Positions 6,588 through 50,581 of a stretch of 50,581 nucleotides of DNA are shown piece after piece. The first letter of the stretch is position 1. Every line of letters starts with the position of its first letter. The stretch lies in the NCBI GenBank assembly GCA_002084355.1, contig NBLL01000001.1, positions 1 to 50,581 on the forward strand, given 5' to 3'. Made by a program: the position numbers and the translations under genes. Origin of the DNA: Bacteroidetes bacterium 4572_128. GTDB lineage: Bacteria > Bacteroidota > Bacteroidia > Bacteroidales > 4572-128. The notes beneath the pieces are model-generated. The model saw nothing but the letters and a program-made list of their open reading frames with translations. It made no database searches and had not been told where the DNA came from.

Positions 6588-7279
6588 ATGAAAAATAAAG
6601 AAATGTCATTTTTAGGTCATTTGGAAGAATTAAGATGGCATATAATTCGTTCTTTTATAGCTGTTATAATATTGGCAATATTGGCTTTTATTTATAGCGA
6701 ATTTATTTTTGATAATATTATTTTATTTCCAAAAAATCCAGAATTTTTTACTAATAGAATGTTTTGTAAACTCGGACATTTGATGGGGACAGAGAAATTA
6801 TGTATAAATAGTAATCCTTTAACTTTATAAAACCTGCTTTGGAAAAAAAAGAAAAAAAATATACAACAGGTGCAGTATTTTTCACATCTATTCTTTTTAT
6901 GATGGGAGTTTTATTTGGATATTTTTTAATCGTTCCATTGTCTCTTAATTTTCTTGGTTCTTATGTTGTTAGCGACGAAGTTTTAAATCAAATTAATATT
7001 GGTTCTTACATAGATATGATAACTTCAGTAACTCTTGCTTCAGGTATAATTTTCGAATTACCAGTTTTAATTTATTTTTTAAGTAAACTTGGAATAGTAA
7101 CTCCTTCAATATTAAGGAAATATAGACGACATTCTTTAGTTGTTATTTTATCTCTTTCCGCAATAATTACTCCGCCAGATATTTTTAGTCAAATTTTAGT
7201 TTCATTACCTTTATTTATTTTGTATGAATTTGGAATTTTGATTGCGAAAAATATTTACAAAGAAAAAGAAGAACAATAA
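6588..7279 (+). pseudogene. tatC: twin-arginine translocase subunit TatC, disrupted (internal deletion plus frame change)
   Basis: ORF 6588-6830 carries the TatC N-terminus (MSFLGHLEELRWHIIRS...). ORF 6839-7279 carries the TatC C-terminal two thirds (GAVFFTSILFMMGVLFGYFLIVPLSLNFL...) in a different frame. A TAA lies at 6828. From memory of TatC alignments, roughly 40 residues between the two parts are missing. Confidence 0.7.
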
Positions 7280-7282
7280 AAA

Positions 7283-8410
7283 ATTTTTCAAAAAAAACGC
7301 CAATTTTTTATGAATTATTAAAAAAAAAAATTTTTGAAAAATGCCAATTTTTTTATGAATTATTTAAAAAAAAACTTTTTCCAAAAAATGCCAATTTTTT
7401 ATGAATTATTTAAAAAAAAATTTTTTCAAAAAATGCCAATTTTTTTATGAATTATTAAAAAAAATTTTTTCCAAAAAATGCCAATTTTTTGTGAATTATT
7501 AAAAAAAAATTTTTTTCAAAAAAAACGCCAATTTTTTATGAATTATTTAAAAAAAAATTTTTTCAAAAAACGGCGTTTTTTTATGAGTCATTAAAAAAAA
7601 AAAATTTTTTTCAAAAAACGGCGTTTTTTTTATGAATTATTAAAAAAAAAATTTTTTCCAAAAAATGCCAATTTTTTATGAATTATTTAAAATTTTTTTT
7701 CAAAAAACGGCGTTTTTTTATGAATTATTAAAAAAAAAAATTTTTTCAAAAAACGGCGTTTTTTTTATGAATTATTAAAAAAAAAAATTTTTTCCAAAAA
7801 ACGGCGTTTTTTTATGAATTATTAAAAAAAATTTTTTCAAAAAATGCCAATTTTTTATGAATTATTTAAAAAAAAAATTTTTCCAAAAAATGCCAATTTT
7901 TTATGAATTATTTAAAAAAAAATTTTTTCCAAAAAACGGCGTTTTTTTTATGAGTTATTAAAAAAAAAAATTTTTTTCAAAAAAATGCCAATTTTTTATG
8001 AATTATTTAAAAAAAACTTTTTCCAAAAAATGCCAATTTTTTTATGAATTATTAAAAAAAATTTTTCCAAAAAATGCCAATTTTTTATGAATTATTTAAA
8101 AAAAAAATTTTTCAAAAAACGGCGTTTTTTTTATGAGTTATTAAAAAAAATTTTTTCAAAAAATGCCAATTTTTTATGAATTATTTAAAAAAAAATTTTT
8201 CCAAAAAACGGCGTTTTTTTTATGAGTTATTAAAAAAAAAATTTTTTTCAAAAAAATGCCAATTTTTTTATGAGTTATTAAAAAAAAATTTTTTTTCCAA
8301 AAAACGGCGTTTTTTTATGAATTATTAAAAAAAATTTTTTTCCAAAAACGCCAATTTTTTATAAATTATTAAAAAAAATTTTTTCCAAAAACGCCAATCT
8401 TTTATGAATT
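7283..8410 (+). repeat. tandem array, 25 units of about 45 bp, A/T-block repeat family (array A1)
   Basis: By hand count there are 25 head-to-tail units of ATGAATTATT, A8-10, T6-8, C(C)A6, a core, then T6-8. Core states are TGCCAA (12 units), CGGCG (9) and CGCCAA (4). Confidence 0.9.
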
Positions 8411-9525: not shown

Positions 9526-10122
9526 ATGAAAACAAGAGTTTTTAATTATTTGTTTATTATTTTTATATTTTCTTTTTTTCTTTCTTGTGCACCAAAAAGA
9601 AAAGTTAATAGAGTTTCTCCAGACCAGCAAATAGATCTTAGTGGACGATGGAATGACACAGATTCTAAAATGTGTGCAAAATCATTAATTGAGCAAGTTC
9701 TGACGGAAAAATGGTTAGATGAATTTAAACAAAAAAACGGAGGTAAAAGACCAATAATTGTTGTTGGACTTGTAAAAAATAAAAGCCACGAACATATTAG
9801 TTCGGAAACTTTTATAAAAGATATAGAAAAAGCAATTATAAAATCTGGATTAGCAAGACTTGTACAAGCAGGAGATAAAAGAGAACAACTAAGAGGTGAA
9901 AGAGCTGGACAACAAGAATTTGCTTCGAAAACCACAGCGAAAAAATGGGGACAAGAACTTGGAGCAGATTTTATGTTACAAGGAACTTTAAACTCAATAG
10001 TTGATAGTTATAAAAAGGAAAAGGTCGTTTCTTACCAAATTGATCTGGAACTTTCTAATTTAGAAACTAACGAAATAGTTTGGATGGGAGATAAAAAAAT
10101 TAAAAAATACATCACAAATTAA
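9526..10122 (+). CDS. LpoB-like (penicillin-binding protein activator family) lipoprotein
   Basis: Lipobox (FFLSC). The body matches the LpoB/YcfM pattern as I remember it (PIIVVGLVKNKS...GADFMLQGTL...VSYQIDLELSNLETNEIVW). Confidence 0.55.
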   Translation: MKTRVFNYLFIIFIFSFFLSCAPKRKVNRVSPDQQIDLSGRWNDTDSKMCAKSLIEQVLTEKWLDEFKQKNGGKRPIIVVGLVKNKSHEHISSETFIKDIEKAIIKSGLARLVQAGDKREQLRGERAGQQEFASKTTAKKWGQELGADFMLQGTLNSIVDSYKKEKVVSYQIDLELSNLETNEIVWMGDKKIKKYITN

Positions 10123-10127
10123 AAAAT

Positions 10128-10212
10128 AATGAGAAATGTGAATGAAAAAAACAAATATGAAAATTAGTTTACAGTTATATGAATTATTCATTTTTCATTC
10201 ACATTTCTCATT
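10128..10212. repeat. 85-bp MITE-like element or long hairpin with 22-bp perfect terminal inverted repeats
   Basis: AATGAGAAATGTGAATGAAAAA (10128-10149) is the exact reverse complement of 10191-10212. The spacer is 41 nt and holds a second small palindrome, ATGAAT-T-ATTCAT. AAAAAT flanks both sides (10122-10127 and 10213-10218). Confidence 0.7.
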
Positions 10213-12103
10213 AAAAATTTTTCATTTTTTTATCTTTTGTTTTTTGTTTTTTTTTTGTAAAAAATCTTTTTCGCAGGAAAACATTAATGACACTTTGATT
10301 TTAGAAGAATTTATTTTTCTTGATAAAAAAGTTTCTGATAAAATAGGTTTTAAAATTACAAAATTCGAAAAAATAATTATAAATGATAAAATTACTGAAA
10401 ACTTATCTGAATTACTTTCGGAAAATTCTAATATTTTTATAAAATCTTACGGAAATGGTCGCATATCAACTGCATCTTTTCGTGGTGCCGGAGCGTCGCA
10501 CACTAAGGTTTTGTGGAACGGAATAAATATAAATTCTGTCATGCTTGGACAGGTAAATTTTTCGCAAATTCCAAATTATTTTATAGATGAAATAAGTTTA
10601 TATCACAGCGGAAGTATTTTTAATAATAGCGGTTCTTTGGGAGGAAGTATTTTTTTAGAAAATAAAATAAATTGGAATAATGATTTTAATTTTGATTTCT
10701 CGCAGGAATTTGCAAGTTTTCAAACTTATAATTCTTTTTTATCTTTTTCTTATGGGAATAAGAAATTTCAAAGTCGGACAAGAATAATTTATGAAATATC
10801 AGAAAATAATTTTTCTTTCGATGATGATTTTGGAGAACAAAAAATACAAGAAAATAATAATTTTTTTCAAAAAGGAATTTTACAAGAATTTTATTTGAAA
10901 AATAATAATAATTATTTTTCCTTGAAATTTTGGGCACAAAATAATAAAACTCAAATTCCGCCGTCAGAAAAAGAGATTCAAAAACAAGATATTTTACGTT
11001 TTATTTTTGAATGGAAAAATTATATGAAAAAATTAATTTTTAAAACAAAAGTCGCTTACACTTACGATTTTATGAATTATAAAAATGAAAATAATATTAT
11101 AAAACCAATAAATTCGAATAATTTAATTAACAGCTTTTATAATTTTTTTGATATAAATTATAATTTTAATAAAAATTTAAAATTAAAAACTGGAATAAAT
11201 TTATTTTATCATCAAGTTGAAACAGGAAATTATAAATCAACAAAAGAAAGAGTTAATATATCTTCTTTTTTAGGAATTAATTATTTATTTTTCAAAAAAT
11301 TACAAACATCTTTTTTTATAAAAAAAGAAATAATTGATAAAAATTTTTCTCCTTTAATACCGTCTATGAGTTTTAATTATAAAATTTTTGAAAATAAAAA
11401 ATTTGAAATGGATTTTAAATGCAATTTTACGAGAAATTATAATTATCCAACTTTAAATGATTTATATTGGTTTCCAAATGGAAATGCAAATTTAAAAGCA
11501 GAAAATGGTTTTTCTTATGAAAATGGCATATTTCTGAAAAAAAATTTTTTCAAAAATATGAGCGTTTTTTTGGAAACAACTTATTTTTATTCTAAAATAA
11601 ATGATTGGATTTTATGGAATGCTTTAAATTCTGAAATTTGGACACCGGAAAATTTAAAAAAAGTTGAACGAAAAGGAATAGAAAATTCTTTGAAAATTGA
11701 TTTTAAAATTAAAAATTTAAATATTTTCTTTAAACATACAAATTCTTATGTTAATTCAAAAAATTTAAAAAAATTTAATGATTTTGATAACTCTTTGAAT
11801 AAACAATTAATTTATGTTCCAAAATTTATTTTTAATAATTTTGTCCATTTTTCATATAAAAATAATTACATATCTTATTCTAATCAATTTTCTGATTTAA
11901 TTTACACAAGCTCAGACAATGAAAATTTTTTACCATCTTATTTTATTTCTAATTTAAAAATTGGAAAAAAATTTATTTTTAAAAATAAATTTTTATTTAT
12001 CAATTTTAAGATTAAAAATTTATTTAATAAAAATTATCAAGTTGTAGAAAATTATCCTATGCAAAAAAGAAATTTTCATTTTATTTTACAAATAAATTTT
12101 TAA
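10142..12103 (+). CDS. TonB-dependent outer-membrane receptor
   Basis: Plug-domain motif (ISTASFRGAGASHTKVLWNGININS), a long beta-barrel-like body rich in Y/N/F, and a terminal aromatic residue (...ILQINF). Both candidate ATG starts (10142, 10157) lie inside the inverted-repeat element. Confidence 0.8.
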   Translation: MKKTNMKISLQLYELFIFHSHFSLKIFHFFIFCFLFFFCKKSFSQENINDTLILEEFIFLDKKVSDKIGFKITKFEKIIINDKITENLSELLSENSNIFIKSYGNGRISTASFRGAGASHTKVLWNGININSVMLGQVNFSQIPNYFIDEISLYHSGSIFNNSGSLGGSIFLENKINWNNDFNFDFSQEFASFQTYNSFLSFSYGNKKFQSRTRIIYEISENNFSFDDDFGEQKIQENNNFFQKGILQEFYLKNNNNYFSLKFWAQNNKTQIPPSEKEIQKQDILRFIFEWKNYMKKLIFKTKVAYTYDFMNYKNENNIIKPINSNNLINSFYNFFDINYNFNKNLKLKTGINLFYHQVETGNYKSTKERVNISSFLGINYLFFKKLQTSFFIKKEIIDKNFSPLIPSMSFNYKIFENKKFEMDFKCNFTRNYNYPTLNDLYWFPNGNANLKAENGFSYENGIFLKKNFFKNMSVFLETTYFYSKINDWILWNALNSEIWTPENLKKVERKGIENSLKIDFKIKNLNIFFKHTNSYVNSKNLKKFNDFDNSLNKQLIYVPKFIFNNFVHFSYKNNYISYSNQFSDLIYTSSDNENFLPSYFISNLKIGKKFIFKNKFLFINFKIKNLFNKNYQVVENYPMQKRNFHFILQINF

Positions 12104-13943: not shown

Positions 13944-14590
13944 ATTTAAAAAAAAAAAATTTTTTTTAAAAATGACCAAATTTTTAATTTTTAAAAAATG
14001 CCATTTTTTTTAATTTAAAAAAAAATCAAGATATAGAAACCTAATTTTTATTTTTTTCTTAATTTTTTTCTTCAATTTTTTTTTTTTAATAATTAAAAAA
14101 ACATAAAATTTTAACATTTTTTCTTCAAATTTTTTTTTAATAATTCAAAATCATAAAAATTTTAGTATTTTTTCAAAAAATTTTTTTTTTTAATAATTAA
14201 AAGCATAAAAATTTCGGCATTTTTTAAAAAATTTTTTTTTAATAATCATAAAAATTTCGGCGTTTTTTTGAAAAAACTTTTTTTATTATTATAAAAAAAT
14301 CATTAAAATAATTGGTTTTTTTGAAAAATTTTTTTTTAATAATTCAAAATCATAAAAATTTCGGCGTTTTCTTGAAAAAATTTTTTTTAACATTGTAGGT
14401 TAAAAAAAACCTCCAATGTTGTTTTTTTTAAAATATTAAAATTTTGGACGTTTTTTGAAAAAAATTTTTTTTATTGAAAATTAAAATATTTGAAATTTTG
14501 GACGTTTTTTGGAAAATTTTTTTTAAATTGAAAATTAAAATATTTAAAATTTTGGACGATTTTTGAAAAAAAATTTTTTTTTAATAAATT
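13944..14590. repeat. A/T-block repeat family, mixed-orientation array (A2)
   Basis: Forward units lie at 13944-14020 (cores TGACCAAA, TGCCATT). Reverse-oriented units run from about 14040 (CATAAAAATTTCGGCG..., TAAAATTTTGGACG...TTGAAAAAAA). Confidence 0.8.
14389..14420. repeat. AACATTGGAGGTT palindromic element, degenerate copy
   Basis: AACATTGTAGGTT, an A run, then AACCTCCAATGTT. One arm mismatch relative to the copies at 22.4 kb and 43.9 kb. Confidence 0.75.
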
Positions 14591-20251: not shown

Positions 20252-20935
20252 AATTAAAAAAAATTTTTTTCAAAAATCGTCCAAAATTTTAATGTTTTTT
20301 TTAAATTGAAATTCTAAGTACACGACAAAAGTTTAAAAATGTTTATTTTTACTTTTTTTGCTGTGTTTAATAATTGATTTGTAATTTGATTTAATCCGAA
20401 ATAAATATTGTGATTTCTTTTCTTTTATGTTTTTTAGTTTTTATTTTTTTTCCATTTTTGGATGTTTTAATGATTTTTTAAAATTAAAAAAAAATTTTTT
20501 TTTCAATAAAATGCGGATTTTTAATGATTTTTTAAAATTAAAAAAAAATTTTTTTTTCAATAAAATGCGGATTTTTTAATAATTTTAAAATTCAATAAAA
20601 TGCGGATTTTTTAATAATTTTAAAAATTGAAAAAAAATTTTTTTTTCAATAAAATGCGGATTTTTAATGATTTTTTAAAATTGAAAAAAAATTTTTTTTT
20701 CAATAAAATGCGGATTTTTAATGATTTTTTAAAATTAAAAAAAAATTTTTTTTTCAATAAAATGCGGATTTTTTAATAATTTTAAAATTTTAAAATTAAA
20801 AAAAAATTTTTTTTTCAATAAAATGCGGATTTTTTAATAATTTTAAAAATTAAAAAAAAATTTTTTTTTCAATAAAATGCGGATTTTTTATTATTTTAAA
20901 ATTAAAAAAAATTTTTTTTTAATTAAAAAATTATA
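20252..20935 (+). repeat. A/T-block repeat family array (A3), private core TGCGGA
   Basis: One CGTCCAAAATTTTAATG unit at about 20275, a non-repeat island at about 20300-20455, then 8 units of ...A8-9 T9 CAATAAAATGCGGATTTTTAATGATTTT.... Spacing is mostly 54 bp (ATGCGG at 20511, 20565, 20600, 20654, 20708, 20762, 20823, 20877). Confidence 0.85.
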
Positions 20936-22313: not shown

Positions 22314-22335
22314 CGAAAATCTTAAAACATTTTCA

Positions 22336-22900
22336 AACATTGGTGTTAAAAAAAAAACTCCAATCCAGTGTTAAAAAATTTTTTTCAAAAATCGCCCAAA
22401 ATTTTAAGATTTTTAAAAAAACAACATTGGAGGTTTTTTTTTAAACCTCCAATGTTTGATGTCGAAACATTGGAGGTTAAAAAAAAAACCTCCAATGTTT
22501 TATTTGAATTAAAAAAAATTTTTTTGAAAAAAATGTCCAAAATTTTAAGATTTTTAAAAAAACAACATTGGAGGTTTTTTTTTAAACCTCCAATGTTTGA
22601 TGTCGAAACATTGGAGGTTAAAAAAAAAACCTCCAATGTTTTAAAAAATTTTTTTTTCAAAAAAACGTCCAAAATTTTATGATTTTTTATTTGAATTAAA
22701 AAAAAATTTTTTTTCAAAAATCGTCCAAAATTTTAAGATTTTTTATTTCAATTAAAAAAAAATTTTTTTTTCAAAAAATGCCTAAAATTTTAATGTTTTT
22801 TAATCTCAAAATTAAAAAAATTTTTTTCAAAAAACGCAATTATTTTAATGAATTTTATAATTAAAAAAAAAAAATTAAATTTGTTTTTTTATAAAAAATT
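22336..22900 (+). repeat. composite repeat region (A4): A/T-block units plus paired AACATTGGAGGTT palindromes, with a 141-bp tandem duplication
   Basis: The double-hairpin module at 22423-22500 is repeated at 22564-22641, an offset of exactly 141 bp. A degenerate copy lies at 22336-22372. A/T-block units with cores CGCCCAAAA, TGTCCAAAA, CGTCCAAAA, TGCCTAAAA and CGCAATTA follow, up to 22875. Confidence 0.85.
22876..22883 (+). promoter_or_regulatory. -7 promoter box (TAAATTTG) for the ATPase operon
   Basis: Exact TAnnTTTG, 22 nt upstream of the ATG at 22906. Confidence 0.4.
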
Positions 22901-24299: not shown

Positions 24300-24572
24300 A
24301 TGGACGTTTTATTGCACATAGATATTATTGCTCAATATTTTAAAAATAAATTATCTGTTGATATTTTTAATGAAGAATTTATTTTAATTAAAAATTTTTT
24401 TGAAAAAAATGATGATAATTTTAAAATTATTTTAACACAAAATATAATTCAAAATGTAAAAAAAAGTTTGAAAAACCATTATGCGTCATCGTCCACGCTT
24501 GATTTCGGAAATCAAGCGTGGACGATGACGCATAATGGATTAATACAGAAAAAATTTTCTATGAATAATTAA
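24300..24572 (+). CDS. small hypothetical protein, carries an in-frame 63-nt palindromic insertion
   Basis: 90-aa ORF starting 5 nt after the ATPase stop. Residues YASSSTLDFGNQAWTMTH are encoded by the palindrome at 24476-24538. No family recognised. Confidence 0.4.
   Translation: MDVLLHIDIIAQYFKNKLSVDIFNEEFILIKNFFEKNDDNFKIILTQNIIQNVKKSLKNHYASSSTLDFGNQAWTMTHNGLIQKKFSMNN
24476..24538. repeat. 63-bp G/C-rich perfect palindrome (30-bp arms, 3-nt loop)
   Basis: CCATTATGCGTCATCGTCCACGCTTGATTT CGG AAATCAAGCGTGGACGATGACGCATAATGG. The arms are exact reverse complements. G/C content is far above the surroundings. Confidence 0.9.
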
Positions 24573-24627
24573 ATTTTAATTTAAAAATATTTTTTTTAAT
24601 TGTGAACATATTTAAAAAATAAATATT

Positions 24628-26679
24628 ATGATAACAAATAATTTTTTCCAAGATTTTGATTTTCAGATTTTAAATTCTAATGATTTCAAAGAAGATGCGG
24701 TTAGAGAAGAATTAATTAACCCTATTTTAAAAAAATTAGGATATAAGGCTTACGGAAATAATAGAATAATTTACAGTAAAACGCTTTCACATCCTTTTGT
24801 AAAAATAGGCTCGGGAAAAAGAAAAATAAATATTATTCCAGATTATTTATTTTCTGTAAATGACCAATATACTTGGGTACTTGACGCAAAAGCTCCAAAT
24901 GAAAAAATTATAAATAGTGATAATGTTGGGCAAGTTTATTCTTATGCAATTCACCCAGAAAGAAAAAGAACCATTATTATTTTTTCAGCTTAACAAAATT
25001 GATAAACACTGGAACGAAATACAAAAATTATTATCTCCGGATATTTTTACAGAAAAACAAATTAAAAAAAAAGAAAAAAAAGAAGAAAAGAAAAATAATA
25101 ATTTTAATTATTTAGATTGTAAATTACCGAAATCTATTAAAGTAAAAAAACAAGCTGTAAAACGACATTATGGCGTACATGGTTATTTTACAAGACAAAG
25201 TTGGGATATTTTACAACATTATATTAAAAATTTCACCAAAAAAGGAGATCTTATTTTAGATAGTTTTGCCGGAACCGGAGTAACTGCGATAGAGGCTTTG
25301 ATGCTCGAAAGAAAAGCAATTAATATAGATTTAAATCCGATGGTTATTTTTTTAACTAAAGCTTTAACTATTCCTGTTGATTTCGAAATTTTACAAAAAG
25401 AATTTGAAATAATAAAAATTGCTTTTGAAAAAGATTGTCCAGAAACAAATGAAGAAATTGAAATTTCTTTAAAAAAATACCCCTTTCCTCAAAAAAAAAT
25501 TTTTTCTAAAGGTGCTGATGTAAAAGATGTAGAATATTTTTAACATTTCATAACTCAAAAAGAGGAGGAGGTCATCCAGGAGCATTTCGTTATTATCGTT
25601 ATCGTATTGCTCCAAATCCATATTTATTAGATTTATCTTCACTTTTTGTTTCTCGTTATAAAAAAATTATAAAAGCGAAAAAAGAGATTTTACCTTTTAT
25701 TAATAAAAAAACGATAAAAAATTTACAAATTTACAAAGGTAGTGCTACGAATTTAGAAAAAATAAAAAATGAAAGTATTGACTATATTTATACTGACCCC
25801 CCTTATGGCTCAAAAATACATTATTTAGATTTGTCTGTAATGTGGAATGCTTGGCTTGATTTAGAAGTCAGCGAAAAAGACCGCAATTTAGAAGCAATAG
25901 AAGGCGGAAGTAAAAATAAAAGCAAAGATGAATATGCCGAATTACTGCAAATTTCTATTAAAGAAATGTATAGAGTTTTAAAATTTAATCGTTGGATGTC
26001 TTTTGTTTTTGCTCATAAAGACCCACATTATTGGCATATAATTGTAGATACTGCCCAGAAATGCGGTTTTGAATATATTGGCGTTGTGAAACAATCCAAT
26101 GGACAAACGAGTTTTAAAAAACGTCAAAATCCTTTTTCGGTTTTGTCTGGTCAATTAATTATTAATTTTATCAAAAAAGAGCGTCCTTTATCAATTAATA
26201 AAATTAAATTAGGTGAGATTTATGATTTGGTTATAAATACTATAGAAAATATTATAGCCACCAATGACGGAGCTACCATAGAAGAAATTAATGATGAGTT
26301 AATTATCATGGGTTTAGAACATGGTTTTTTGCATATTTTAAGCAAAGAATATAAAGATTTAACGCCGATTTTGGTTTCAGAATTTGATCATAACCAAGAA
26401 ACAGAAAAATTTTATATTCGTAAAAACAGCAAATTTAAAAGTAAAATACCTTTAGATATGCGTATTAAATATTTTCTTTTTTCTTATTTTAAACAAAAAG
26501 AACGAGAAGATATTTATCCGACAACAGATAATATAATTTTGGATATTATGCCGCTTCTACAAAATGGAATTACTCCGGATGATCAAACAATTTTAATTAT
26601 TTTACGTTCCTTAGCAAATCCAATGAAAGATAATAAATGGAAATTAAAAGAAAAAGACCAGATAAAAATTTTTTTTTGA
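24628..26679 (+). pseudogene. PD-(D/E)xK (HsdR_N-type) nuclease-like domain fused to an N6A/N4C DNA methyltransferase; at least 2 frameshifts
   Basis: The gene is read in three frames: 24628-24993, 24917-25543 and 25519-26679. The N-terminus is EDAVREELINPILKKLGY...IPDYLF...WVLDAKAP (HsdR_N-like with PD...DAK). Motif I is LILDSFAGTGVTAIEALMLERKAINIDLNP. Motif IV is IYTDPPYGSKIHYLDLSVMWNAWL, reached only by reading the frame upstream of the called ORF at 25831. Both shifts lie in A/T homopolymer contexts. Confidence 0.7.
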
Positions 26680-29242: not shown

Positions 29243-30018
29243 AATACAAATTTATTTTTTTTTTATTATTTAAAATAAAAAATTTTTTTTCAAAAAATGG
29301 CAATTATTTTAAGATTTTTTTCAAAAAAATGACAATTTTTTAATGATTTTTTATAATTAAAAAAAAATTTTTTTTCAAAAAACGTCCAAATTTTAATGTT
29401 TTTCAAATTAAATTAAAAAATTTTGGCTATCGAACCTTTTTGTGGAGGGAAATTTTTTCATAATAAAATTGTGAAAAATTTGTGTTTTTTTTTTAATATT
29501 TTTTAAAATTTTTTATTTCAAATCGTCACTAAAGCATTAAAAATCAATGCTTTGTAAAAAGATGCAACGAAATCATCGTGGACGATGAATCATTTTGTGT
29601 CCAAAATTTTAATATTTTTAAAATTAAAAATAAAAAAAATTTTTTCAAAATTCGTCCAAAAATTTAATGTTTTTAAAATTAAAAATAAAAAAAATTTTTT
29701 CAAATTCGTCCAAAAATTTAATGTTTTTAAAATTAAAATTTAAAAAAAAATTTTTTTCAAATTCGTCCAAAAATTTAATATTTTTTAATTTCAAAAATAA
29801 AAAAAATTTTTTTCAAATTCGTCCAAAAATTTAATGTTTTTAAATTTAAAAAATTTTTTTTTCAAATTCGTCCAAAAATTTAATGTTTTTAAAATTAAAA
29901 TTTAAAAAAATTTTTTTTTTGAAAAATCCAAATATTTTTTAATCTCAAAAATCCAAATATTTTAATATTTTATTTCAAAAATAAATTTTTCAAAATTGCG
30001 TTTTTTTTTAATGTTTTT
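29243..30018 (+). repeat. A/T-block repeat family array (A7), interrupted by about 200 bp of unique sequence
   Basis: Units at 29283-29400 have cores TGGCAATTA, TGACAATTT and CGTCCAAA. Unique sequence at 29401-29600 contains a half copy of the 63-bp palindrome at about 29570-29595. Five units of about 57 bp carrying TTCGTCCAAAAATTTAAT lie at 29650-29885. Degenerate units follow to 30018. Confidence 0.85.
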
Positions 30019-30517: not shown

Positions 30518-31676
30518 TTATTTTAAAGAGTGAAATACTAAACCACTTCTTAATTTTGGCTCGAACCAAGTTGTTTTTGGAGGCATAATTTTATCATTAT
30601 CAGCAATATCCATCAATTGTTTCATACTAACAGGATATAAAGCAAAAGCAACTTTCATCTCTCCAGAATCAACACGTTTTTTTAATTCACCAATTCCACG
30701 TATTCCTCCAACAAAATCTATACGTTTAGAACGTCTCAAATCTAAAATATTAAGATGTGGCTCTAAAATATGCTCATAAATACATAGAAAAATTATGTAA
30801 TTTATTTGGTTTATATTCTTCTTTTTTTTCACAAATAACAAAATTTTCTTTTAATTTTGTTATAAATTCTTCATCAGACATTCCATTTAAATCTTTTACA
30901 ACTCTATTGTAATCAATAATTGTAAGCTGACTTTCTGGAAAATTTACAGACATAAAAAAATTATATTCTTCATCTCCATTGTGATTTGGATTATTATTTT
31001 TTCTCTCTTCACCAACCAAAGCAGCAGCAGCAGTTCTGTGATGTCCATCAGCAACATAAACAAATGGAATTTCTTTATCAAAAATTTCCGTAATTCTTTT
31101 TATTGTTTTATCGTTATTAATAATCCAAAAATGATGTCCAACTTCATCGTCAGTTTTAAAATCATATTCTGCTTTTTCTTTTACCGTTTTTTCTATAATT
31201 TCATTAATTTCTTTATTATCCCTAAAAGCAAAAAATACTGGTTCAGCGTTTGCATCTGTATAACGAACATGATTCATTCTATCCTCTTCTTTATCTGGTC
31301 TTGTCAGTTCATGTTTTTTTATAATATTATTATTATAATCTTCAACAGAACTACACGCAACAATACCATATTGAGTTTTCCCCCACATAGTTTGTCCATA
31401 AATATAAAATTTATCTTTCTCATCTTGAAAAAACATCCCACTATCGACAAGAGATTTCAAATTTGATTTTGCTTTGTTGTAAAGAATTTCACCATGTAAA
31501 TCTACATCTTTCGGAAGATCTACTTCTGGTTTTACAACATGTAAAAAAGAATGAGGATTTCCTTTTACTTCTTCTCTCGCTTCATCAGAATTTAGAACGT
31601 CATAGGGACGAGAAGCAATTTCATTTACATTATCCTTTTTAGGACGAAAACCTTTAAATGCTCTTAGAACAGCCAT
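30518..31676 (-). pseudogene. DUF1015-family protein, internal deletion plus frame change
   Basis: ORF 30774-31676 is the DUF1015 N-terminal 300 aa (MAVLRAFKGFRP...ASRPYDVL...). ORF 30518-30841 carries the family C-terminus (...RIDFVGGIRG...AFALYPVSMKQLMDIADNDKIMPPKTTWFEPKLRSGL) in another frame. The junction is ...NFSMYL | EHILEPHLNILD. From memory, about 40 residues are missing. Confidence 0.65.
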
Positions 31677-33012: not shown

Positions 33013-33360
33013 AAAATATTTTTCAAAAAAACGCTAAATTTTTAATGATTTTAAATTAAAATTTTTTTATTTGAAATTATTAAAAAAAAATTTTCCAAAA
33101 ACGCCAAAATTTTTAATTTTTATTTCAAAAAATATTTTCCAAAAAACGCCAAAATTTTCAATTTATTTAAAAAAAAATTTTTCCCAAAAACGCCAAAATT
33201 TTTAATTTATTTAAAAAAATATTTTTCCAAAAAACGCCAAAATTTTTAATTTATTTAAAAAAATATTTTCCAAAAAAACGCCAAAATTTTTGATTTTTAT
33301 TTCAAAAAAAATTTTTCCAAAAAACGCCAAAATTTTCATGATTTTATTTTTCAATAAAAA
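33013..33360 (+). repeat. A/T-block repeat family array (A8), core CGCCAAAA
   Basis: Seven units of about 45-55 bp: ...TTTTTCCAAAAAACGCCAAAATTTTTAATTTATTTAAAAAAA.... Confidence 0.85.
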
Positions 33361-33413: not shown

Positions 33414-35856
33414 TTGTTTAAAATAAAAAAAATGAGCAGTTTAAAAAAAAAAATTTTTTCTTGGAAAGAATTTAAAATTAATAAAAAAATAAGAATAATA
33501 ATATTTTTTATGAGCATTACACCTGTTCTATTTATGGCTTTTCTCGGCTATTATAGTGGAATAACAATGATAAATAAAGGATATTTTCAAGGATTGAATG
33601 TTATTAGAGATTCTAAAAAAGAGCTAATTGAAAATTATTTTAAAAATATTGAAAATTCATTAATCTATTTGTCTAAATATAAAAAAACTATAAATGCAAT
33701 AAAAGATTTTAAAAAAGCAATTTCTTCTATAAAAATAAGAAATGATGAAGAATATAAAAAAGCAGAAAAAAATTTACATTATTTTTATAAAACAAATTTT
33801 TTACCGAGATTAAACGAAAAATTAGAAAAGAATAAAAATATTTATGATTTTCTTCCGAAAGACAGTACAACAGTAATTTTACAAAATTCTTATATTTTAA
33901 AAAATAAAAATAAAAATCATAAATTATATGATATTTATAATAATAAATATCATAAAACATTTGAAAATTTTTTCAATTTATTTGATTGTAGAGATGTTTT
34001 TCTAATAGATGCAAAAGATTTAAAAATTATTTATACTGTTTATAAAGAAACAGATTTTGCAAGGTCTTTAAAATCGGCAATTTTTTTTAAAAAAAATATA
34101 AAAGAAGTTTGTAAAAAGATAATTTCAAATCCAGAAAGAAATTCTTTTTTTATTAGCGATTTAAAAAGATATGAATTTTCATTTATGGAACCAGCATTTT
34201 TTATTGGAAGTCCAGTTTTTGACGAGAATGAATTAATTGGAATGATTATTTTTCAAATTTCTATGAAAAAAATAAATCAAATAATCGCTTCTGAAAATAA
34301 AAATTCTGAAGATATAGAAATTTCAATTTTAGGAGAAGATTTTAAAATTAGAGCAAATAATAAATATATTGAGGACCAAGACTTATATTTAGAAAAACTT
34401 GAAAAAACAAATTATAATAATAATATTATTAATAATATTAAAAAATATAAATCAAATGTTTTAATTCAAAAAATAGAAAATGAAAACTTAAAAAAGTTTT
34501 TAAATGGTAAAGAAAGAAACAAAATTATAAAAAATGACTTTGACAAAAATGTTTTTATTTCTTATTCTAATATAAAAATTGGAGAATTAAATTGGAAAAT
34601 AATTGTAGAATTAGAAAAAGAAAAAACCTCTGAATATTTTTTTAAAGTGCGAACTTTTATTACTATAATTACTATTATTTTAATAATAATTATTTATTTT
34701 TTTACAAATATTTTTGTAAAAAAATTAGTTGAACCGATAATTCAATTAAAAGAAAATTTTATATTACTTTCTGATGGTAAATTTCCTAAGAAAATAGAGA
34801 TAAAATATAATGATGAAATTGGAGAAACAATTAATGCTTTAAATGAATTATCAAATGGTTTAAAATTATCTGTTGATTTTGCAAATAAAATCGGAGAAGG
34901 AAAATTAGATGCCGAATATATCGTTTCAAAAGACGGTGATTTTGGAAATGCTCTTTTGCGTATGCGAGATAAATTAAAAATTGCAAAAAACGACGAAGAA
35001 AAAAATAATGAAGAAAAAAGAATACAAAAATGGATAAATGACGGAATAAATGGAATTAATAAAATTACTCATAATAAATATGAAAATATTAGTTTGCTTT
35101 CGAAAAATATTTTGTATTTTGTAATAAATTATTTAGATGCAAATCAAGGCGGTTTTTTTGTAATTAATGATGAAAAAAAAAATATTGAAATGACCGCTTG
35201 TGTTGCTTAGAAAAAGAAATTATTTATATTAAAAATTTACCGCAATCATATTTAGAAATTACTTCTGGACTTGGTGATGAAAATCCAAAAAATTTAATTA
35301 TTGTTCCTCTGATTCTTAATGGAGAAGTTTTTGGTGTTATAGAAATTGCTTCTTTTAAATTATTTAAAAAATGGGAAATAGAATTTGTGAAAAAAATATC
35401 TGAAGATTTAGCATCATCTGTTTTGGGAGTAAAATCTCACCAAAGAACAGAAATAAAGAATTACAAACATCACAAGAAATGTCTGTAAGAAAAACAAAAG
35501 AAATGCAAGATATTTTATCTGTAATAGACAATTCTATTATGATGGTAGAATTTGATAAAAACTCTAAATTTATTTCGACAACTAATGCTGTGGAAAAATT
35601 TCTTAAAATAAACAAATCAGATGTTTTGAATAAAAAACATCAAGAAGTTTCTAATTTAAGTGATTTAGAATTTAGTAAATTATGGAATAAATTAAAAAAT
35701 GGTGAAATTGTAGAAAGATATTTTTATTTTGATTATTTAGATAAATATGTAAAAGATATTTATACTCCTATTTTTGACGAAAATGATAAGTTAGAAAAAG
35801 TTATTCTAATTTATTTTGATATTACAGAAGAAACAAAATTAAAAATGAAAAATTAG
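33414..35856 (+). pseudogene. second Cache-HAMP-GAF-PAS sensor, disrupted paralogue of 2857-5178
   Basis: There are three ORFs in three frames: 33414-35210, 35198-35488 and 35479-35856. The GAF region aligns with the intact paralogue (NYLDANQGGFFVI..., ITSGLGDENPKNLIIVPLILNGEVFGVIEIASF). About 20-25 residues are missing at the first junction (ACVA | LEKEIIYI), and the coiled coil is shortened at the second. Confidence 0.65.
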
Positions 35857-36396: not shown

Positions 36397-38402
36397 ATGA
36401 AAAAATTTATTTTGCCAATTTTAATTTTGGCTTTTGTTTCTTGTGATAATAAAAAATCAAGTTTTGAATATCCAGAAACAAAAAAAGTTGATAGTGTTGA
36501 TACATATTTTGGTGTGGAAGTAAAAGATAATTACAGATGGTTGGAGGATGATATGTCTGAAGAAACAGCAAATTGGGTACAATCTCAAAATAAAGTAACT
36601 TTTGATTATTTGGAAAAAATACCTTTTAGGAAAAAAATTAATGACAGATTAACAGAAATATGGAATTACGAAAAATTTTCTGTCCCTTTCAAAAGAGGCG
36701 GAAAATATTTTTTCTTTAAAAATACTGGTTTACAAAATCAAAGTGTTTTGTATATTCAAGATAATTTAAATAAAAAAGAAAAAGTTTTATTAGACCCAAA
36801 TAAACTTTCTAAAGATGGAACTGTTGCTCTTGCTGGTTTAAAATTGACAAAAGATATAAAATATCTTGCTTATTCTATTGCCCGCGGTGGTTCTGATTGG
36901 AACGAAATTTTTGTTAAAGAAGTGAAAACTGGAAAAATTTTGAAAGACCATATAAAATGGGTAAAGTTTTCGGGGATTTCTTGGTTTAAAGATGGTTTTT
37001 TCTACAGCTCTTACGACAAACCTGAAGGAAGTGCTTTATCAAAGAAAAATGAATTTCATAAAGTTTATTATCACAAATTAGGAACTGAGCAAAAAGAAGA
37101 TAAATTAATTTATGAAAACAAAAAATTTCCTTTGAGAAATTATTATGTTTCTATTACAGATGATGAAAAATTTTTGATAATGTCTGAAACAGAATCTACT
37201 CACGGCGAAAGTGTTTATTTTAAAAATTTAGAAAAAGAAAATTCTGAATTTGTAAAAATTGCTGATGGTTTCAAATATGAATATAAAATTCTTGAGCATT
37301 CGAAAGGTAAATTTTATATTCTTACAAACGATAATTCTCCAAAATACAAACTTGTTGAAGTTGAAATTAAAAATCCAGAAATTAAAAACTGGAAAGAAAT
37401 TTTACCAGAAAAAGAAAAAAATTGCCAACAATAGGAACCGTTGGAGGATTTTCTTATTTAAAAGGTGAAAATATGGCTTTTTATACTTTTACATCTTTTA
37501 CTGTACCTTCTATAATTTATAAATATGATTTTAAAACAGGAAAATCTGTAATCTATAAAAAACCAAAAATAAATTTTGATTTTGATAATTATGAGACAAA
37601 ACAAATTTTTTACAGGAGTAAAGATGGTACAAAAGTTCCAATGTTTATTGTCCATAAAAAAGGTTTAAAAATGGAAGGTAACAATCCGACTTTATTGTAT
37701 GCTTACGGTGGTTTTAATATTAGTTTAACTCCAAGTTTTAGCGTAACTCGTTTGGCATTTTTAGAAAACGGCGGAGTTTTTGTCATGGCAAATTTGCGTG
37801 GCGGAGGAGAATACGGAGAAAAATGGCATTTAGATGGAACAAAAATGCATAAACAAAATGTTTTTGATGATTTTATTTATGCTGCTGAATATTTAATAAA
37901 AGAAAAATATACTTCTTCTGAAAAACTTGCAATACAAGGAGGTTCTAATGGAGGTTTACTTGTCGGTGCTGTTATTAATCAACGACCAGAATTGTTTAAA
38001 GTTGCTTTGCCTGCGGTTGGAGTGATGGATATGTTACGTTATCAAAAGTTTACCATTGGATGGGCGTGGGCTGGAGATTATGGAACAAGCGATGATAGTA
38101 AAGAAATGTTTGAATATTTAAAAAATTATTCACCGCTTCACACTGTAAAGAAAAATGGAAAATATCCTGCAGTTCTTGTCAGTACTGCTGACCACGATGA
38201 TAGAGTCGTTCCTGCACATTCTTTTAAATATATTGCAGAACTACAAAGTAAAAATAAAAATAATGAAAATCCTTTGTTCATTAGAATAGGAGTAGATGCT
38301 GGACATGGAGCAGGAAAACCTACAGAAAAAATCATTGAAGAATATTCTGATATATGGGCATTTTTATTTTATAATATGAATATAGAACCATATAAAGATT
38401 AA
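36397..38402 (+). pseudogene. prolyl oligopeptidase (S9A), internal deletion plus frame change
   Basis: ORF 36397-37434 has a lipoprotein-type signal, the N-terminal domain and most of the beta-propeller. ORF 37422-38402 has the end of the propeller and the catalytic domain (GGSNGGLLVGA, ADHDDRVVPAHS, GHGAG). The frames differ, and the propeller-to-catalytic junction appears shortened. Confidence 0.8.
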
Positions 38403-40983: not shown

Positions 40984-42313
40984 ATGAGAGAAATTTTAAT
41001 AAAAAATGCAAAAATTTTAATAAAAAATGAAGGAAATTTTAATAAAAAATGCAAAAATTTTAATGAAAATAAAATTTTTTCCGGAGACGTTTTTTTAAAA
41101 GATGAAAAAATAGAAGATATTTTTTTAAAAAAAAACGGCAAATATTCAAAAAAAAATTTTTCAAAAGATATTTTGGAAATAGATGCTTCGGGAAAATATT
41201 TAATTCCGGGAATTATTGACACACACGTACATTTTAGAGATTTTAAAATCTCTGAAAAAGGAACTATAGAAACAGAATCTAAGGCAGGAATTGCGGGAGG
41301 AGTTACTTCTTACATAGAAATGCCCAACACAGACCCTCCGACGGTTTCTATAAAATCTTTGAATGAAAAATTTCAAATTGCTTCGGAAAAATCATGGTCA
41401 AATTATTCTTTTTACATAGGTGCAACAGATGATAATTTTGACGAAATTTTAAAAATTAATCCTAAAAAGATTTGTGGAGTAAAAGTTTTTCTTGGTTCTT
41501 CTACGGGAAATATTATTGTAAAAAACAAAGAAATTTTGAAAAAAATTTTTTCTTTACCTTTTTTAATTGCCGTACATTGTGAGGACGAAGAAATTATAAA
41601 AAAAAACGAGATTTTTTATAAAAAAAAATTTGGTGAAAATATTGATATAAAATATCATTCTAAAATTAGAAGTGAAGAGGCTTGTTTTAAATCGTCTTTT
41701 TTTGCGGTAGAAATGGCAAAAAAATATAATACAAGATTGCACATTAAGTGAAGTTTGTTTACATCATTTATTTTTTGACGAAAATGATTATTTTGATAAA
41801 AAAGGAAGAATAAAATTAAATCCCTCTATAAAAACGTGTAAAGATAAAAATGCTTTATTTAATTCTGTAAAAAACGGAAAAATAGATGTCATTTCAACAG
41901 ACCATGCTCCGCATTTGTCAGAAGAAAAAGAAAATTCTTATTTTAAATGTCCATCAGGTTCTCCTTTTATACAACATTCACTCATTGCAATTTTAGAAAA
42001 ATATCATAAAAAAGAGATTTCTCTTGAAAAAATAGTTGAGAAAATGGCTCACGCACAAAGTGATATTTTTAATATTTATAAAAGAGGATACATTAAAAAA
42101 GGATATTTTGCAGATTTAGTGCTTTTAGATTTATCAAAAAAATGGACGGTAAATAAAAAAGATATTTTATATAAATGTGCATGGTCTCCATTGGAAAATG
42201 AAATTTTTTCTTCAAAAGTTACGCACACTTTTGTAAATGGAAATTTAATTTATGAAAATGGAAATTTTTATAAAAAAATTAAAGCAAAAGCTTTAGTTTT
42301 TAAAAAATCATAA
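40984..42313 (+). pseudogene. pyrC: dihydroorotase, internal deletion plus frame change; also carries a 5' repeat expansion
   Basis: ORF 40984-41751 has IPGIIDTHVHFRD and AVHCEDEEII. From 41750, in another frame, the sequence reads EVCLHHLFFDENDYFDKKGRIKLNPSIKT...IDVISTDHAPH and continues into ORF 41915-42313. The segment between ...RLHI and EVCLHHL is missing. Confidence 0.75.
40990..41064 (+). repeat. 21/22-bp tandem repeats inside the 5' end of pyrC
   Basis: AAATTTTAATAAAAAATG(C/A)A occurs three times, plus a fourth diverged copy. A 32-bp perfect direct repeat lies at 40990-41021 and 41033-41064. The net effect is a 42-nt in-frame insertion (IKNEGNFNKKCKNF). Confidence 0.85.
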
Positions 42314-42428: not shown

Positions 42429-43576
42429 TTATTTTGATATTGTATCCAAAATGTGATTATAATTTTCCCAGAATTCAGGGTCATATTCTAGATTTTCTTG
42501 GTAATAAATACTTTTATTTTTCATTTTATTTTCTGGTTTACGAACATTTACAGTATCAATATTATTAACTAATATTTTGGTAAAATATTGAGAATTTAAA
42601 AGCATTTCACCATTTTGTTCAAAATTTTTAATATCATGATAACTATACATGGTATATAAAAATAATTTATTATTAATTTCTTTGAACTTTATTATTTCTA
42701 CATATTTTTCTATATCATATATTTCTCTTTTAATTATTTTGTTTATCTCTGATGGTTTTTTAGAATCATAAAAAAATTGAACCTATTTTCATATTTTAAA
42801 TTGATAATATAAACTAAATTATCATCATATAATTTTGTATTTTCTTTTTCAAAATTATATTTTTTTAAAAATTTCTTTCTAAGAAATGGGTGTTTATAAC
42901 GAAAAATATTTCTTTTTAAAGTGATTTTTACTTCATTAATTTTTTTAATAATTTTTATTGGCTCTGTATAACAGTCTTCATTTCGTCTTACTCCAATAAT
43001 TTCTACTGTTTCGTCTAATGCTGAAAATATATATTTATGTGTTTTTTTAAATTTCGGTGTATATAATTTAATTGCAACTCCTAATTTCATATGAGATTTT
43101 TTATACTTTCCATTTTGAAATTCTTTTTCTTCAAAATAAACATCAGAAATATGTTTTTTTGTGTAATAATTTTCTGGAATTTTTTCAATAGCTTTAAAAA
43201 AAATATCTTCAGCTTTAATTTTTTTAGAAATTACATTTACTTCTTCAAGAATTAATATTGATTTCTCTATAAAAAAAGATTTAAAATTATTTGTTAATTT
43301 CAAATCTTTAATATGTAATTTTAAATTATGATAACCAATAAAGGAAATTATTAAAGTATCATCTATATATTTCTTAGGAATTTTAAAATTAAATTTTCCT
43401 TTTTCGTTACTTACTGTTCCAATATGTTTTTGTAATATTGAAATGTTTGCAAAAGCAAGAATTTCTTTAGAATTTTTATCTTTTACAATTCCTTTAATTG
43501 TAATTAAATTTTGTGAAAACAAAAAATTATTTAATAATAATGACAGAATTACAAGGATTGACAAATTCATTTTCAA
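42429..43576 (-). pseudogene. secreted CarboxypepD_reg-like domain protein, one frameshift at a homopolymer
   Basis: Signal peptide plus ITIKGIVKDKNSKEILAFANISI (carboxypeptidase-regulatory-like fold). The reading frame of ORF 42429-42650 stays open upstream to about 42755, so a 1-nt change at the T6 run (42756-42761) joins it to ORF 42743-43576. Confidence 0.5.
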
Positions 43577-45681: not shown

Positions 45682-47405
45682 TTATTTTAATTTTTCTTCT
45701 AATTTATTTATAATTTCATTTGCGTCTTTATAAATTTTCTCCATTTTACTGTCATCTTTTGAAGGTGAAAATATAAGTTTTTGACAATTATCCAAAGTTT
45801 TGATAAATTCATCTATAATTTTATTGTCTAATTTATTTTTTTGCAAAGTTTCTATGGCATTATCTCTGGACAATTCTGCAGCAGAAATGGAGCTTTTTTT
45901 AGACGTTTTTTAAAACGTTTATTTGCTTTTCTGTATTTTACTAATAAAATATTTGAATTTTCTTTAATTTGTTTTCTTCTCATAATAAAAAATATCAAAA
46001 ATAAAAGAAACGGAATAATATAACTTAAATAAAAATTCAAAGAGCCATAAAATAATTTACCTTTTTTCTTCATATTGAAATTTCCTGTTTTAATAAATCT
46101 TATATCTTCTCCTATAAATTTTATTTCTTCTTTATTTGAAGTTGTTTGATTATAAACTATACTTGTTGTATCGCCGTCTTCTCTTTCAACTTTAATTTCA
46201 AAATCTTTAGTTTTTAATGTTTTATACTTTTTTTTTTGTGTAGAAAAATACGAAAATTTTACAGATTTAATTTTAAAATCTCCGGGATAACGTGGAATTA
46301 TTAAATAATCAAAAGTTTTACTTCCGGAAACTCCGTTTGATGTGGCTTTTGTGCTTATTTTAATTTTTGGGTCGAAAACTTCAAAATCACTTGGGAATTT
46401 CACGTCTAAATTATCTATTAAATTTAAATTACCATTCCCATAAATTTTTATTTTTAAATTTATTGCATCATTTGCTTTTACTTTATTTTTATTAAGATTT
46501 GCTGTCATTTTAAATTCTCCAACTGCACCATTAAAAGATAAAGGAGGATTTTCTGGCAATTCTTTAACTTTAACTAAACGAGAGCGACTTTTTACTTTCT
46601 TTTTTATTTCTTTAAAAGAGGGTCCCCAAAATGAAGTTTTACCTGTTCTTATTCTCAGAACACATTCCAATTCAAATTGTTCTATATTAATTTCTCCAAT
46701 ACTTTGTGGATATAAAACTATTTTTTTCAAAGTTCCGACATTATAAATTTTTCCGTTTATATTCTCTCTTTTTAAAGAGATCTGCTCTGATGATGGAATA
46801 TCTTTCGTCCAAAAACCACTAAAAGAAGGGTATTTTATATTATCAAAACCAACAAGATTTTTTAAAGTATAAACTTTTATTGTAGCAATTATATGTTCAC
46901 CCCTATTTACATTTGTTTTGCTTAAATTTACTCTTACAAATAAATCTTCATCGTCAACTTTTAAAGATTGAACTTTATTTTTTTTCCTATTATTACGATT
47001 ATTATTTTGTGGTGATTCTCCTTTTACAACTTCTATAGTTGTTTTTTTTGTTTTATAAATTTTATTCTCAACTTTTATTCTTGCTTCTGGAATTGTAAAT
47101 TTTCCTTCTTTTCTAGCAACTAAAATATATGTATAAGTATAATCATAACTACTCGTTACCTTTCCGTTTATAATTTGAATATTACTACTGGAAGAAACAC
47201 TCGGACCAGCAAGTATAGAAAAATTATTTAAAACCGGAGCTTTGAAATCAGTTCCTTCAGCATTTAGAGTAAATTTCAATCTAAATTGTTCGCCTATAGC
47301 AACAACTGAAGGAGCAGAAACATTAAATTCAATATCATCTGCTTTTAGATTTTTTAAAGGCAAAATAATGTATAAACAAAATAAAATATAAATAAATTTT
47401 TTCAT
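45682..47405 (-). pseudogene. batD: BatD-family (oxygen-tolerance operon) protein, frameshift in a 7-nt homopolymer
   Basis: BatD-like N-terminus (signal peptide, FNVSAPSVVAIGEQFRLKFTLN...) and a TM near the C-terminus. The C-terminal 63 aa (ORF 45682-45873) are in another frame. The switch maps to the T7 run at 45894-45900. Confidence 0.65.
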
Positions 47406-49297: not shown

Positions 49298-50392
49298 ATG
49301 AGATTTATAGTTTCAAGTTCTGAGTTGCTTATGCACTTACAAATGGTAAGTAAAGTTATTGGTAATAGAAATTCTCTTCCTATTCTTGATAATTTTCTGT
49401 TTAATTTAAGAAAAGATGAAGTTTTAACGGTTACAACTTCTGATTTAGAAACAACATTAACGACAGAAATAGAAGATCTAAGTATGGTAGAAGGAGAGGG
49501 AAATATTGCTATAGAGTCAAAAAGATTATTAGAAATTTTAAGATTGTTACCAGAACAACCATTAACTTTTGAAATAAACGAAGAAAACCTTGACGCAATT
49601 ATTTTTTCAGAAAACGGTGAATTTAGTATAGCAGCTTATCCGCCAGAAGATTTTCCATTACCTCCAGAAGTAGATAAAGAAAAAGGAGTTGATCTTGTTT
49701 TAGACGCTAATCTTTTTCTTAATGGAATAAATACGACGCTTTTTGCAACTGGAGATGACGAATTACGTCCAGTTATGAATGGTATATTTATTGAATTTTT
49801 AAAATCTTTTATTTTACCAAATAAACCATCATCTTTATTAAAAAGTTTTTTATCTAAGGAAGATAATGTTTCTTTGAAATTTGATGATAAAAATGCTATT
49901 TTTTCAATAGGAAATAGAAAATTAGTTTGTCGTTTGCAAGAGGGCGAATATCCTGCTTACAATAATGTTATTCCTTTGGAAAATCCAAATAAAATGGTGA
50001 TTGAAAGAATGGACTTTTTAAATTCTTTAAAAAGAGTACATGCTTTTTCTAACGAAATAACAAGTCTTGTAGAATTGGAATTAGATAAAGATCAAATTAA
50101 AGTTTCTGCAAAAGACGTTGATTATAATGTTTCTGCTTACGAGAATTTATCTTGTGAATATTCTAATGAAAAAATAAAAATTGGGTTTAAAGGTTCTTAT
50201 TTAACAGAGATTTTACAAAATTTAAAATCTGCTGACATAAATTTTGAATTGTCAGACCCAAACAGAGCAGCACTTTTATTTCCTTATGTAAATGAAAATG
50301 AAAACGAAGATGTATTGATGTTAATTATGCCTATGATGATAGATGTTTATTATGCCTATGATGATAGATGTTTAAAAAACATAAAGTTTTAA
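49298..50392 (+). CDS. dnaN: DNA polymerase III beta sliding clamp, aberrant (in-frame internal deletion and altered C-terminus)
   Basis: Clear DnaN N-terminus (MRFIVSSSELL...LPILDNFLF...) and C-terminus (...NRAALLFP...MLIMPMMI). The universally conserved ATDxHRL strand of domain II is absent (junction ...RPVMNGIFIEF | LKSFILPNKP near 49799). The 3' end is extended by a 25-bp tandem duplication. Confidence 0.8.
   Translation: MRFIVSSSELLMHLQMVSKVIGNRNSLPILDNFLFNLRKDEVLTVTTSDLETTLTTEIEDLSMVEGEGNIAIESKRLLEILRLLPEQPLTFEINEENLDAIIFSENGEFSIAAYPPEDFPLPPEVDKEKGVDLVLDANLFLNGINTTLFATGDDELRPVMNGIFIEFLKSFILPNKPSSLLKSFLSKEDNVSLKFDDKNAIFSIGNRKLVCRLQEGEYPAYNNVIPLENPNKMVIERMDFLNSLKRVHAFSNEITSLVELELDKDQIKVSAKDVDYNVSAYENLSCEYSNEKIKIGFKGSYLTEILQNLKSADINFELSDPNRAALLFPYVNENENEDVLMLIMPMMIDVYYAYDDRCLKNIKF
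50324..50373 (+). repeat. perfect 25-bp tandem duplication at the dnaN stop codon
   Basis: ATTATGCCTATGATGATAGATGTTT occurs at 50324-50348 and again at 50349-50373. Confidence 0.95.
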
Positions 50393-50395
50393 TTC

Positions 50396-50431
50396 AAATT
50401 CCAATTTTTAAAAAAATTGGAATTTTTTTTT
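50396..50431 (+). terminator. rho-independent terminator after dnaN
   Basis: AAATTCCAATTTTT / AAAAATTGGAATTT palindrome followed by a T9 run, 4 nt after the stop. Confidence 0.55.
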
Positions 50432-50581
50432 CAAAAAAACGACCAAATTTTAATGATTTTTTAAAATTAAAAAAATATTTTTTTCAAAAAAACGACCAAA
50501 TTTTAATGATTTTTTAAAATTAAAAAAATTTTTTTTTCAAAAAAACGACCAAATTTTAATGATTTTTTAAAATTAAAAAAA
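50432..50581 (+). repeat. A/T-block repeat family array (A14), core CGACCAAA, 53-bp period
   Basis: Three essentially identical units, CAAAAAAACGACCAAATTTTAATGATTTTTTAAAATTAAAAAAA(T)ATTTTTTT. The core C is at 50440, 50493 and 50546. The array runs off the window end. Confidence 0.9.

Follow-up and report, generated by a model that had tools for sequence, protein, structure and literature searches.

Does the organism behind this record replicate its DNA with a sliding clamp that has lost part of its core, or does the record misreport an ordinary gene? The question is raised by dnaN, which lies near the end of the window, that is, of the whole stretch of DNA that was analysed (50,581 nt, positions 1 to 50,581 of contig NBLL01000001.1 of Bacteroidetes bacterium 4572_128). 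A preliminary description of this sequence claimed that a conserved strand of domain II had been removed from the clamp by an in-frame deletion, and offered four possible explanations: a second dnaN copy, a decaying genome, a mis-assembly or an unusually tolerant clamp. In what follows, G000 denotes the genome under study, P0001 the deposited DnaN of 364 aa and P0002 the intact allele of 377 aa.

Two lesions in the deposited dnaN

The deposited open reading frame (49298..50392, forward strand) encodes a protein with a 27-residue internal gap and an aberrant C-terminal tail of 14 residues, and this protein is already present in NCBI nr and IMG. It belongs clearly to the TIGR00663 family (209.7 bits; cut-off, 137.65), but the match falls into two pieces that cover profile positions 1-160 and 192-365, skipping positions 161-191. 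Pfam gives a similar picture. DNA_pol3_beta is matched by aa 1-121 and DNA_pol3_beta_3 by aa 223-346, and the match to DNA_pol3_beta_2 (aa 170-219) is confined to profile positions 65-115 of 116. A full clamp comprises three whole domains of similar fold (PF00712, PF02767 and PF02768), whereas in the deposited protein PF02767 is partial. The best solved clamp, 8dt6 (E-value of 3.6e-63), aligns with query residues 1-169 at chain positions 1-168 and with residues 170-347 at chain positions 196-374, and about 27 residues of the chain have no counterpart in the deposited DnaN.

At the DNA level, alignment to a genome of the same genus (G001, with a dnaN of 377 aa at L004 919..2052) and to contigs of the same strain reveals a single clean gap of 81 nt between 49800 and 49801 on the forward strand, where GAATTTTT is followed directly by AAAATC. 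The preliminary description had estimated the junction to lie near 49799 with the frame preserved; the frame is indeed kept, and the DNA alignment places the gap at 49800/49801. Because the break falls within two codons (TT/T and GA/A, now read as TTA), F168 is changed to L, and residues 169-195 of P0002, 27 in all, are absent from the deposited protein. The loss of a conserved domain-II strand in frame is thus a correct reading of the deposited sequence, borne out by the profiles, by 8dt6 and by the DNA alignment.

The motif of this strand was expected as ATDxHRL, and the preliminary description had noted that nothing like it occurs in the frame. The form found in this lineage is SDAHKL (P0002 residues 177-182, aligned with VATDGHRL of a solved clamp); it lies within the deletion, and no form of it remains elsewhere in the ORF. 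In an alignment of 46 sequences, nine residues of the deleted block are invariant, namely, V175, D178, H180, K181, L182, V183, R184, R187 and D189, so that the gap does not represent chance divergence.

A second lesion in the same gene had been overlooked in the preliminary description. DNA comparison shows an exact tandem duplication of 25 nt over the native dnaN stop codon (50324..50373, forward strand), in which positions 50324-50348 are identical to positions 50349-50373. The duplication shifts the frame and adds YYAYDDRCLKNIKF, so that the native end, MPMMIDV followed by the stop codon, is replaced by a 14-residue out-of-frame tail. Whereas a native C-terminus lies just past the MPM(M/R) pocket motif, the deposited DnaN runs on for 14 extra residues. 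The duplication is missing in G001. Among nine same-strain assemblies included in the DNA comparison, eight lack it as well, and the ninth, L034, stops short of the site. It is probably a contig overlap that was left unmerged.

The partner pocket of the clamp is common to polymerase, clamp loader and repair proteins. In E. coli beta, subsite I of this pocket is made up of R152, L155, T172, G174, H175, R176, L177, P242, R246, V247, V360 and M362 (PMC11139829), and H175 and M362 connect it with subsite II, to which P363, M364 and R365 also belong (PMC11139829, a 2024 review). In the deposited DnaN, the equivalents of T172, G174, H175, R176 and L177 are deleted, which amounts to five of the 12 subsite-I residues and includes the His linking the two subsites of this universal partner-binding pocket. 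The duplication, in turn, changes the end adjoining the MPMM motif. Since the deletion takes the T172-L177 equivalents and the duplication alters the C-terminal end, both lesions strike the partner pocket and, judging from the structural knowledge cited above, a single-copy clamp carrying both of them should not support replication.

The structure predictions suggested in the preliminary description point in the same direction, as the AlphaFold model of the deposited clamp is worse than that of the intact one and has no counterpart of two domain-II strands. In the model of P0002 (pLDDT of 89.2, pTM of 0.86), strands 172-177 and 181-187 and the loop that follows them sit within the deleted stretch. 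The model of the deposited protein reaches a pLDDT of 80.1 and a pTM of 0.72, and its pLDDT falls below 50 at residues 150-159, before the junction, as well as at 338-343 and 348-364.

One could suppose that the protein is nevertheless a real, working clamp that does without the domain-II hairpin, either because it is unusually tolerant or because it has been repurposed; its frame is open, and AlphaFold still builds three domains with the pTM given above. Such a clamp, however, would have to function after the loss of nine residues that are invariant in 46 homologues, of five subsite-I residues out of 12 together with the bridging His, and of two whole strands, with pLDDT values below 50 at 150-159 and over most of 338-364 and with a pocket-lining C-terminus altered by the duplication. 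Moreover, this class of lesion is not specific to dnaN. We therefore regard this explanation as extremely improbable. The tolerant clamp put forward earlier is also not needed, since the same kind of gap breaks tatC, an amidohydrolase gene, batD, a prolyl oligopeptidase gene and others, as described below.

The intact allele and the number of dnaN loci

A database search returned P0001 as a singleton, encoded by one contig, and no other contigs encoding it were returned, in a search that may leave out records of the window's own genome. P0002, in contrast, is encoded by at least nine public assemblies that are independent of one another: three from NCBI, three Logan run assemblies and, from ENA, two scaffolds belonging to two BioSamples and one additional contig. 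It is identical to P0001 everywhere outside the 27-residue gap, F168L and the tail; it has the missing 27 residues, a normal C-terminus and all three Pfam domains. The longer allele that the preliminary description had named as grounds for refuting its claim thus exists at the assembly level.

The assemblies that carry P0002 come from the same strain as the window. On either side of the junction, same-strain contigs are 100.000% identical to it in blocks of 1.6-3.9 kb. Aligned with L029, the longest same-strain piece used (12.7 kb, with the intact dnaN at 10001-11134), the window differs at a single base over about 11 kb and, beyond this, by four deletions that are found only in G000 (71, 46, 85 and 81 nt) and the 25-nt duplication. 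On the strength of these sequence comparisons, the real dnaN of the organism can be taken to be the ordinary, complete 377-aa allele P0002.

As for a second dnaN copy, a search of G000, which is 73% complete, with the TIGR00663 profile found none, and a single dnaN locus was found both in G000 and in most of its relatives. The second copy considered earlier was therefore not found, and it is not needed to explain the data. One relative of the same order does carry, beside its normal dnaN, a second and divergent dnaN-like match with 25% identity and an open frame of 284 aa (G013:C231:1945-2718).

Deletions across the window and beyond

The gap in dnaN is one of many. We aligned about 41 kb of the window pairwise with G001 (92-98% identity) and L029, and 12 segments of 46-155 nt proved to be missing from G000. 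No extra segments of at least 46 nt were present in G000 within the same aligned 41 kb, where the extras were limited to three in-frame indels of 15 nt and the 25-nt duplication. The three 15-nt extras relative to G001 were considered as possible duplications, and this was rejected, as they are ordinary in-frame differences between species.

Besides dnaN, three of these gaps were placed by comparison with L029. A deletion of 85 nt in batD (45891..45892, reverse strand) turns a protein of 602 aa into pieces of 63 and 517 aa; one of 46 nt in a CarbopepD_reg_2 gene (42782..42783, reverse strand) turns 397 aa into 73 and 277 aa; and one of 71 nt in an amidohydrolase gene that is dihydroorotase-like, or pyrC-like (41745..41746, forward strand), turns 466 aa into 255 and 132 aa. 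The remaining gaps were placed by comparison with G001. They include 112 nt in a prolyl oligopeptidase (S9) gene (37417..37418, forward strand), two deletions in one gene for an 862-aa GAF-domain protein (35209..35455, forward strand; 67 nt after 35209 and 70 nt after 35454) and 83 nt in a DUF1015 gene (30775..30776, reverse strand). Three further deletions lie close together on the reverse strand (24420..25539): 155 nt after 24420, within an ORF of 109 aa that has no Pfam match; 59 nt after 24956, within a DNA methylase gene of 762 aa; and 121 nt after 25538, a gap whose right-hand flanking sequence could not be located in the reference locus. Finally, 106 nt are missing from tatC (6820..6821, forward strand).

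Ten of the 12 deletions fall in nine recognisable genes, intact forms of which are found in relatives. Divisibility by three is seen for the dnaN gap only and for none of the other 11 lengths, and such a ratio gives no hint that the frame was under selection. A second contig, C1 (L059, 20 kb), has five more gaps of 60-109 nt relative to G001 in about 13.5 kb of alignment (469/470, around 1454, 13491, around 15075 and 19296/19297), and the presence of the same gaps there means that the defect is genome-wide. Overall, their density is about one per 3-4 kb. Taken together, the lesion is unique to the G000 record, recurrent throughout the genome, one-directional and blind to the reading frame.

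We also looked at the sequences around the breaks. Microhomology amounted to 0 nt at all four junctions that could be checked against same-strain DNA, and replication slippage between direct repeats was rejected as their source for this reason.

A possible biological reading of so many interrupted genes is real genome decay, in which short deletions would cause mass pseudogenisation and dnaN would be one victim among many. The number of interrupted genes in the window fits this idea, as does the extreme AT-richness of the genome (23% GC), a property often associated with reductive evolution. Decaying lineages, however, gain substitutions alongside indels, and here about 11 kb differ by one mismatch from assemblies of the same population in which every one of the genes is intact. 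The genome is also not a reduced one, as its congener has about 3.4 Mb, the joint loss of the dnaN pocket, tatC and other genes would not be viable, and the deletions lack microhomology. We find genome decay very improbable, and a single mismatch in about 11 kb next to about one deletion per 3-4 kb does not fit the decaying genome proposed in the preliminary description.

It could also be argued that the 81-nt deletion is a real allele of the population, for instance a non-functional variant of recent origin that only some cells carry, or one that accompanies an intact copy left unassembled, and that the assembler happened to pick this allele. The preserved reading frame would suit such an allele, the bin of a genome that is 73% complete may well lack a second copy, and our case is built on the comparison of assemblies. 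Against this, the allele would need to have appeared alongside similar deletions at a density of about one per 3-4 kb, 11 of 12 of them not multiples of three and most of them inside genes, and yet differ from the other assemblies by only a single point difference. It was also seen once, against at least nine assemblies with the intact form, and only one dnaN locus is found in G000 and most relatives. A real population allele is thus unlikely in our view. The narrower proposition that the deletion, and perhaps the duplication too, is a real allele that encodes a clamp without its subsite-I strand has a very slight chance of being right; if it were true, this could be a natural pocket-less or dominant-negative clamp, or one that persists thanks to a second copy missing from the assembly.

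Comparison of the available sequences makes a local error in the assembly of this scaffolded metagenome-assembled genome (MAG) a very probable explanation for the 81-nt gap, which would then not be a property of the organism. The dnaN variant is absent from the independent assemblies of the same population, where P0001 remains a singleton, and the gaps recur regardless of gene, frame and function, with 12 deletions against no comparable insertions and five more deletions on C1. One mismatch in about 11 kb, combined with one-directional and frame-blind short gaps in many genes, argues for a faulty consensus and not for a living lineage. Mis-assembly had been among the options listed earlier, and it gains support both from the intact allele found elsewhere and from the recurrent gaps that only G000 has.

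Assembly of the record and comparison with known systems

The G000 record has been scaffolded, as it contains ten N-runs of 7-42 N. One of these is found next to dnaN: a 53-bp tandem repeat in three copies lies downstream of the gene (50421..50581, no strand assigned), and a scaffold gap of 42 N (C49 50582-50623) follows directly past the end of the window, inside the tandem array; this gap, too, marks the record as scaffolded.

Several features of the surrounding DNA were observed along the way. The length of the tandem array at the window end of C49 is unlike that in L029 and L030. Intergenic spacers are filled by a family of A/T-rich tandem repeats of 44-57 bp, for instance at 7278-8410, 14079-14581, 20460-20928, 22335-22876, 29599-29979, 33080-33336 and 50421-50581, with hundreds of matches in G001. 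The GC content, 23.2%, is very low for a non-reduced genome of the Bacteroidota type; the congener G001, at about 3.4 Mb, has a completeness of 91%.

How could such gaps come about? Contig pieces that truly lie 46-155 nt apart may have been butt-joined without Ns, which would create deletions. This may have happened at scaffolding or during gap handling, with the true distance ignored, and few joins would have kept their Ns. At one site or more, neighbouring pieces sharing a 25-nt overlap would have been placed end to end unmerged, and the tandem duplication over the stop codon of dnaN would be the result. The gap in dnaN would be a multiple of three by chance, so that its ORF survives and comes to resemble a clamp with an excised strand. 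We infer both the butt-joining and the pipeline step responsible for it from the pattern of the gaps, and reads would likewise be expected to give the 81-nt junction no support. Simple stripping of Ns from scaffolds was considered as well and is unlikely to be the whole cause, given that ten N-runs remain in the record.

Since the organism has an ordinary clamp, the dnaN lesion is without importance as biology. It does matter as a warning about data quality. Many of the predicted proteins of G000 are truncated, split or internally deleted, and those affected include the products of dnaN, tatC, batD, the pyrC-like amidohydrolase gene, the prolyl oligopeptidase gene, the methylase gene and others. 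Claims based on G000 that genes are lost, split or pseudogenised, or that a domain architecture is odd, call for a prior check against the other assemblies from this population. Because the short deletions are spread genome-wide, the completeness estimate of 73% may also be depressed by the gaps and may thus be too low.

Compared with the bacterial beta sliding clamp DnaN (TIGR00663; PF00712, PF02767 and PF02768; reference E. coli beta, e.g., 1mmi), the deposited ORF shares the three-domain architecture. It differs in being without domain II strands 172-177 and 181-187, including the pocket strand with SDAHKL (TDGHRL in E. coli), and in having a 14-residue out-of-frame tail past the C-terminal MPMM pocket motif.

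The closest parallel for the defect itself is found in the literature on MAGs. Among the error types that Chen et al. (2020; PMC7111523) describe for such genomes are a consensus without support from any read and sequence duplicated where scaffolds are joined; they suspect that IDBA-UD assemblies are particularly prone to both, and they caution that erroneous protein sequences enter public databases in this way. The case of G000 resembles the errors reported by Chen, Anantharaman, Shaiber, Eren and Banfield in several respects: its consensus occurs in no other assembly of the population, a stretch of sequence is duplicated at a join, and errors are found throughout a scaffolded MAG, corrupting its predicted proteins. 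There are also differences. The errors in that publication are defined by lacking read support, whereas the lesions of G000 are known from the comparison of assemblies, and the joins described there contain N with duplicated flanks, in contrast to those of G000, which are made without Ns. Finally, the density of errors in G000 is high, at about one per 3-4 kb.
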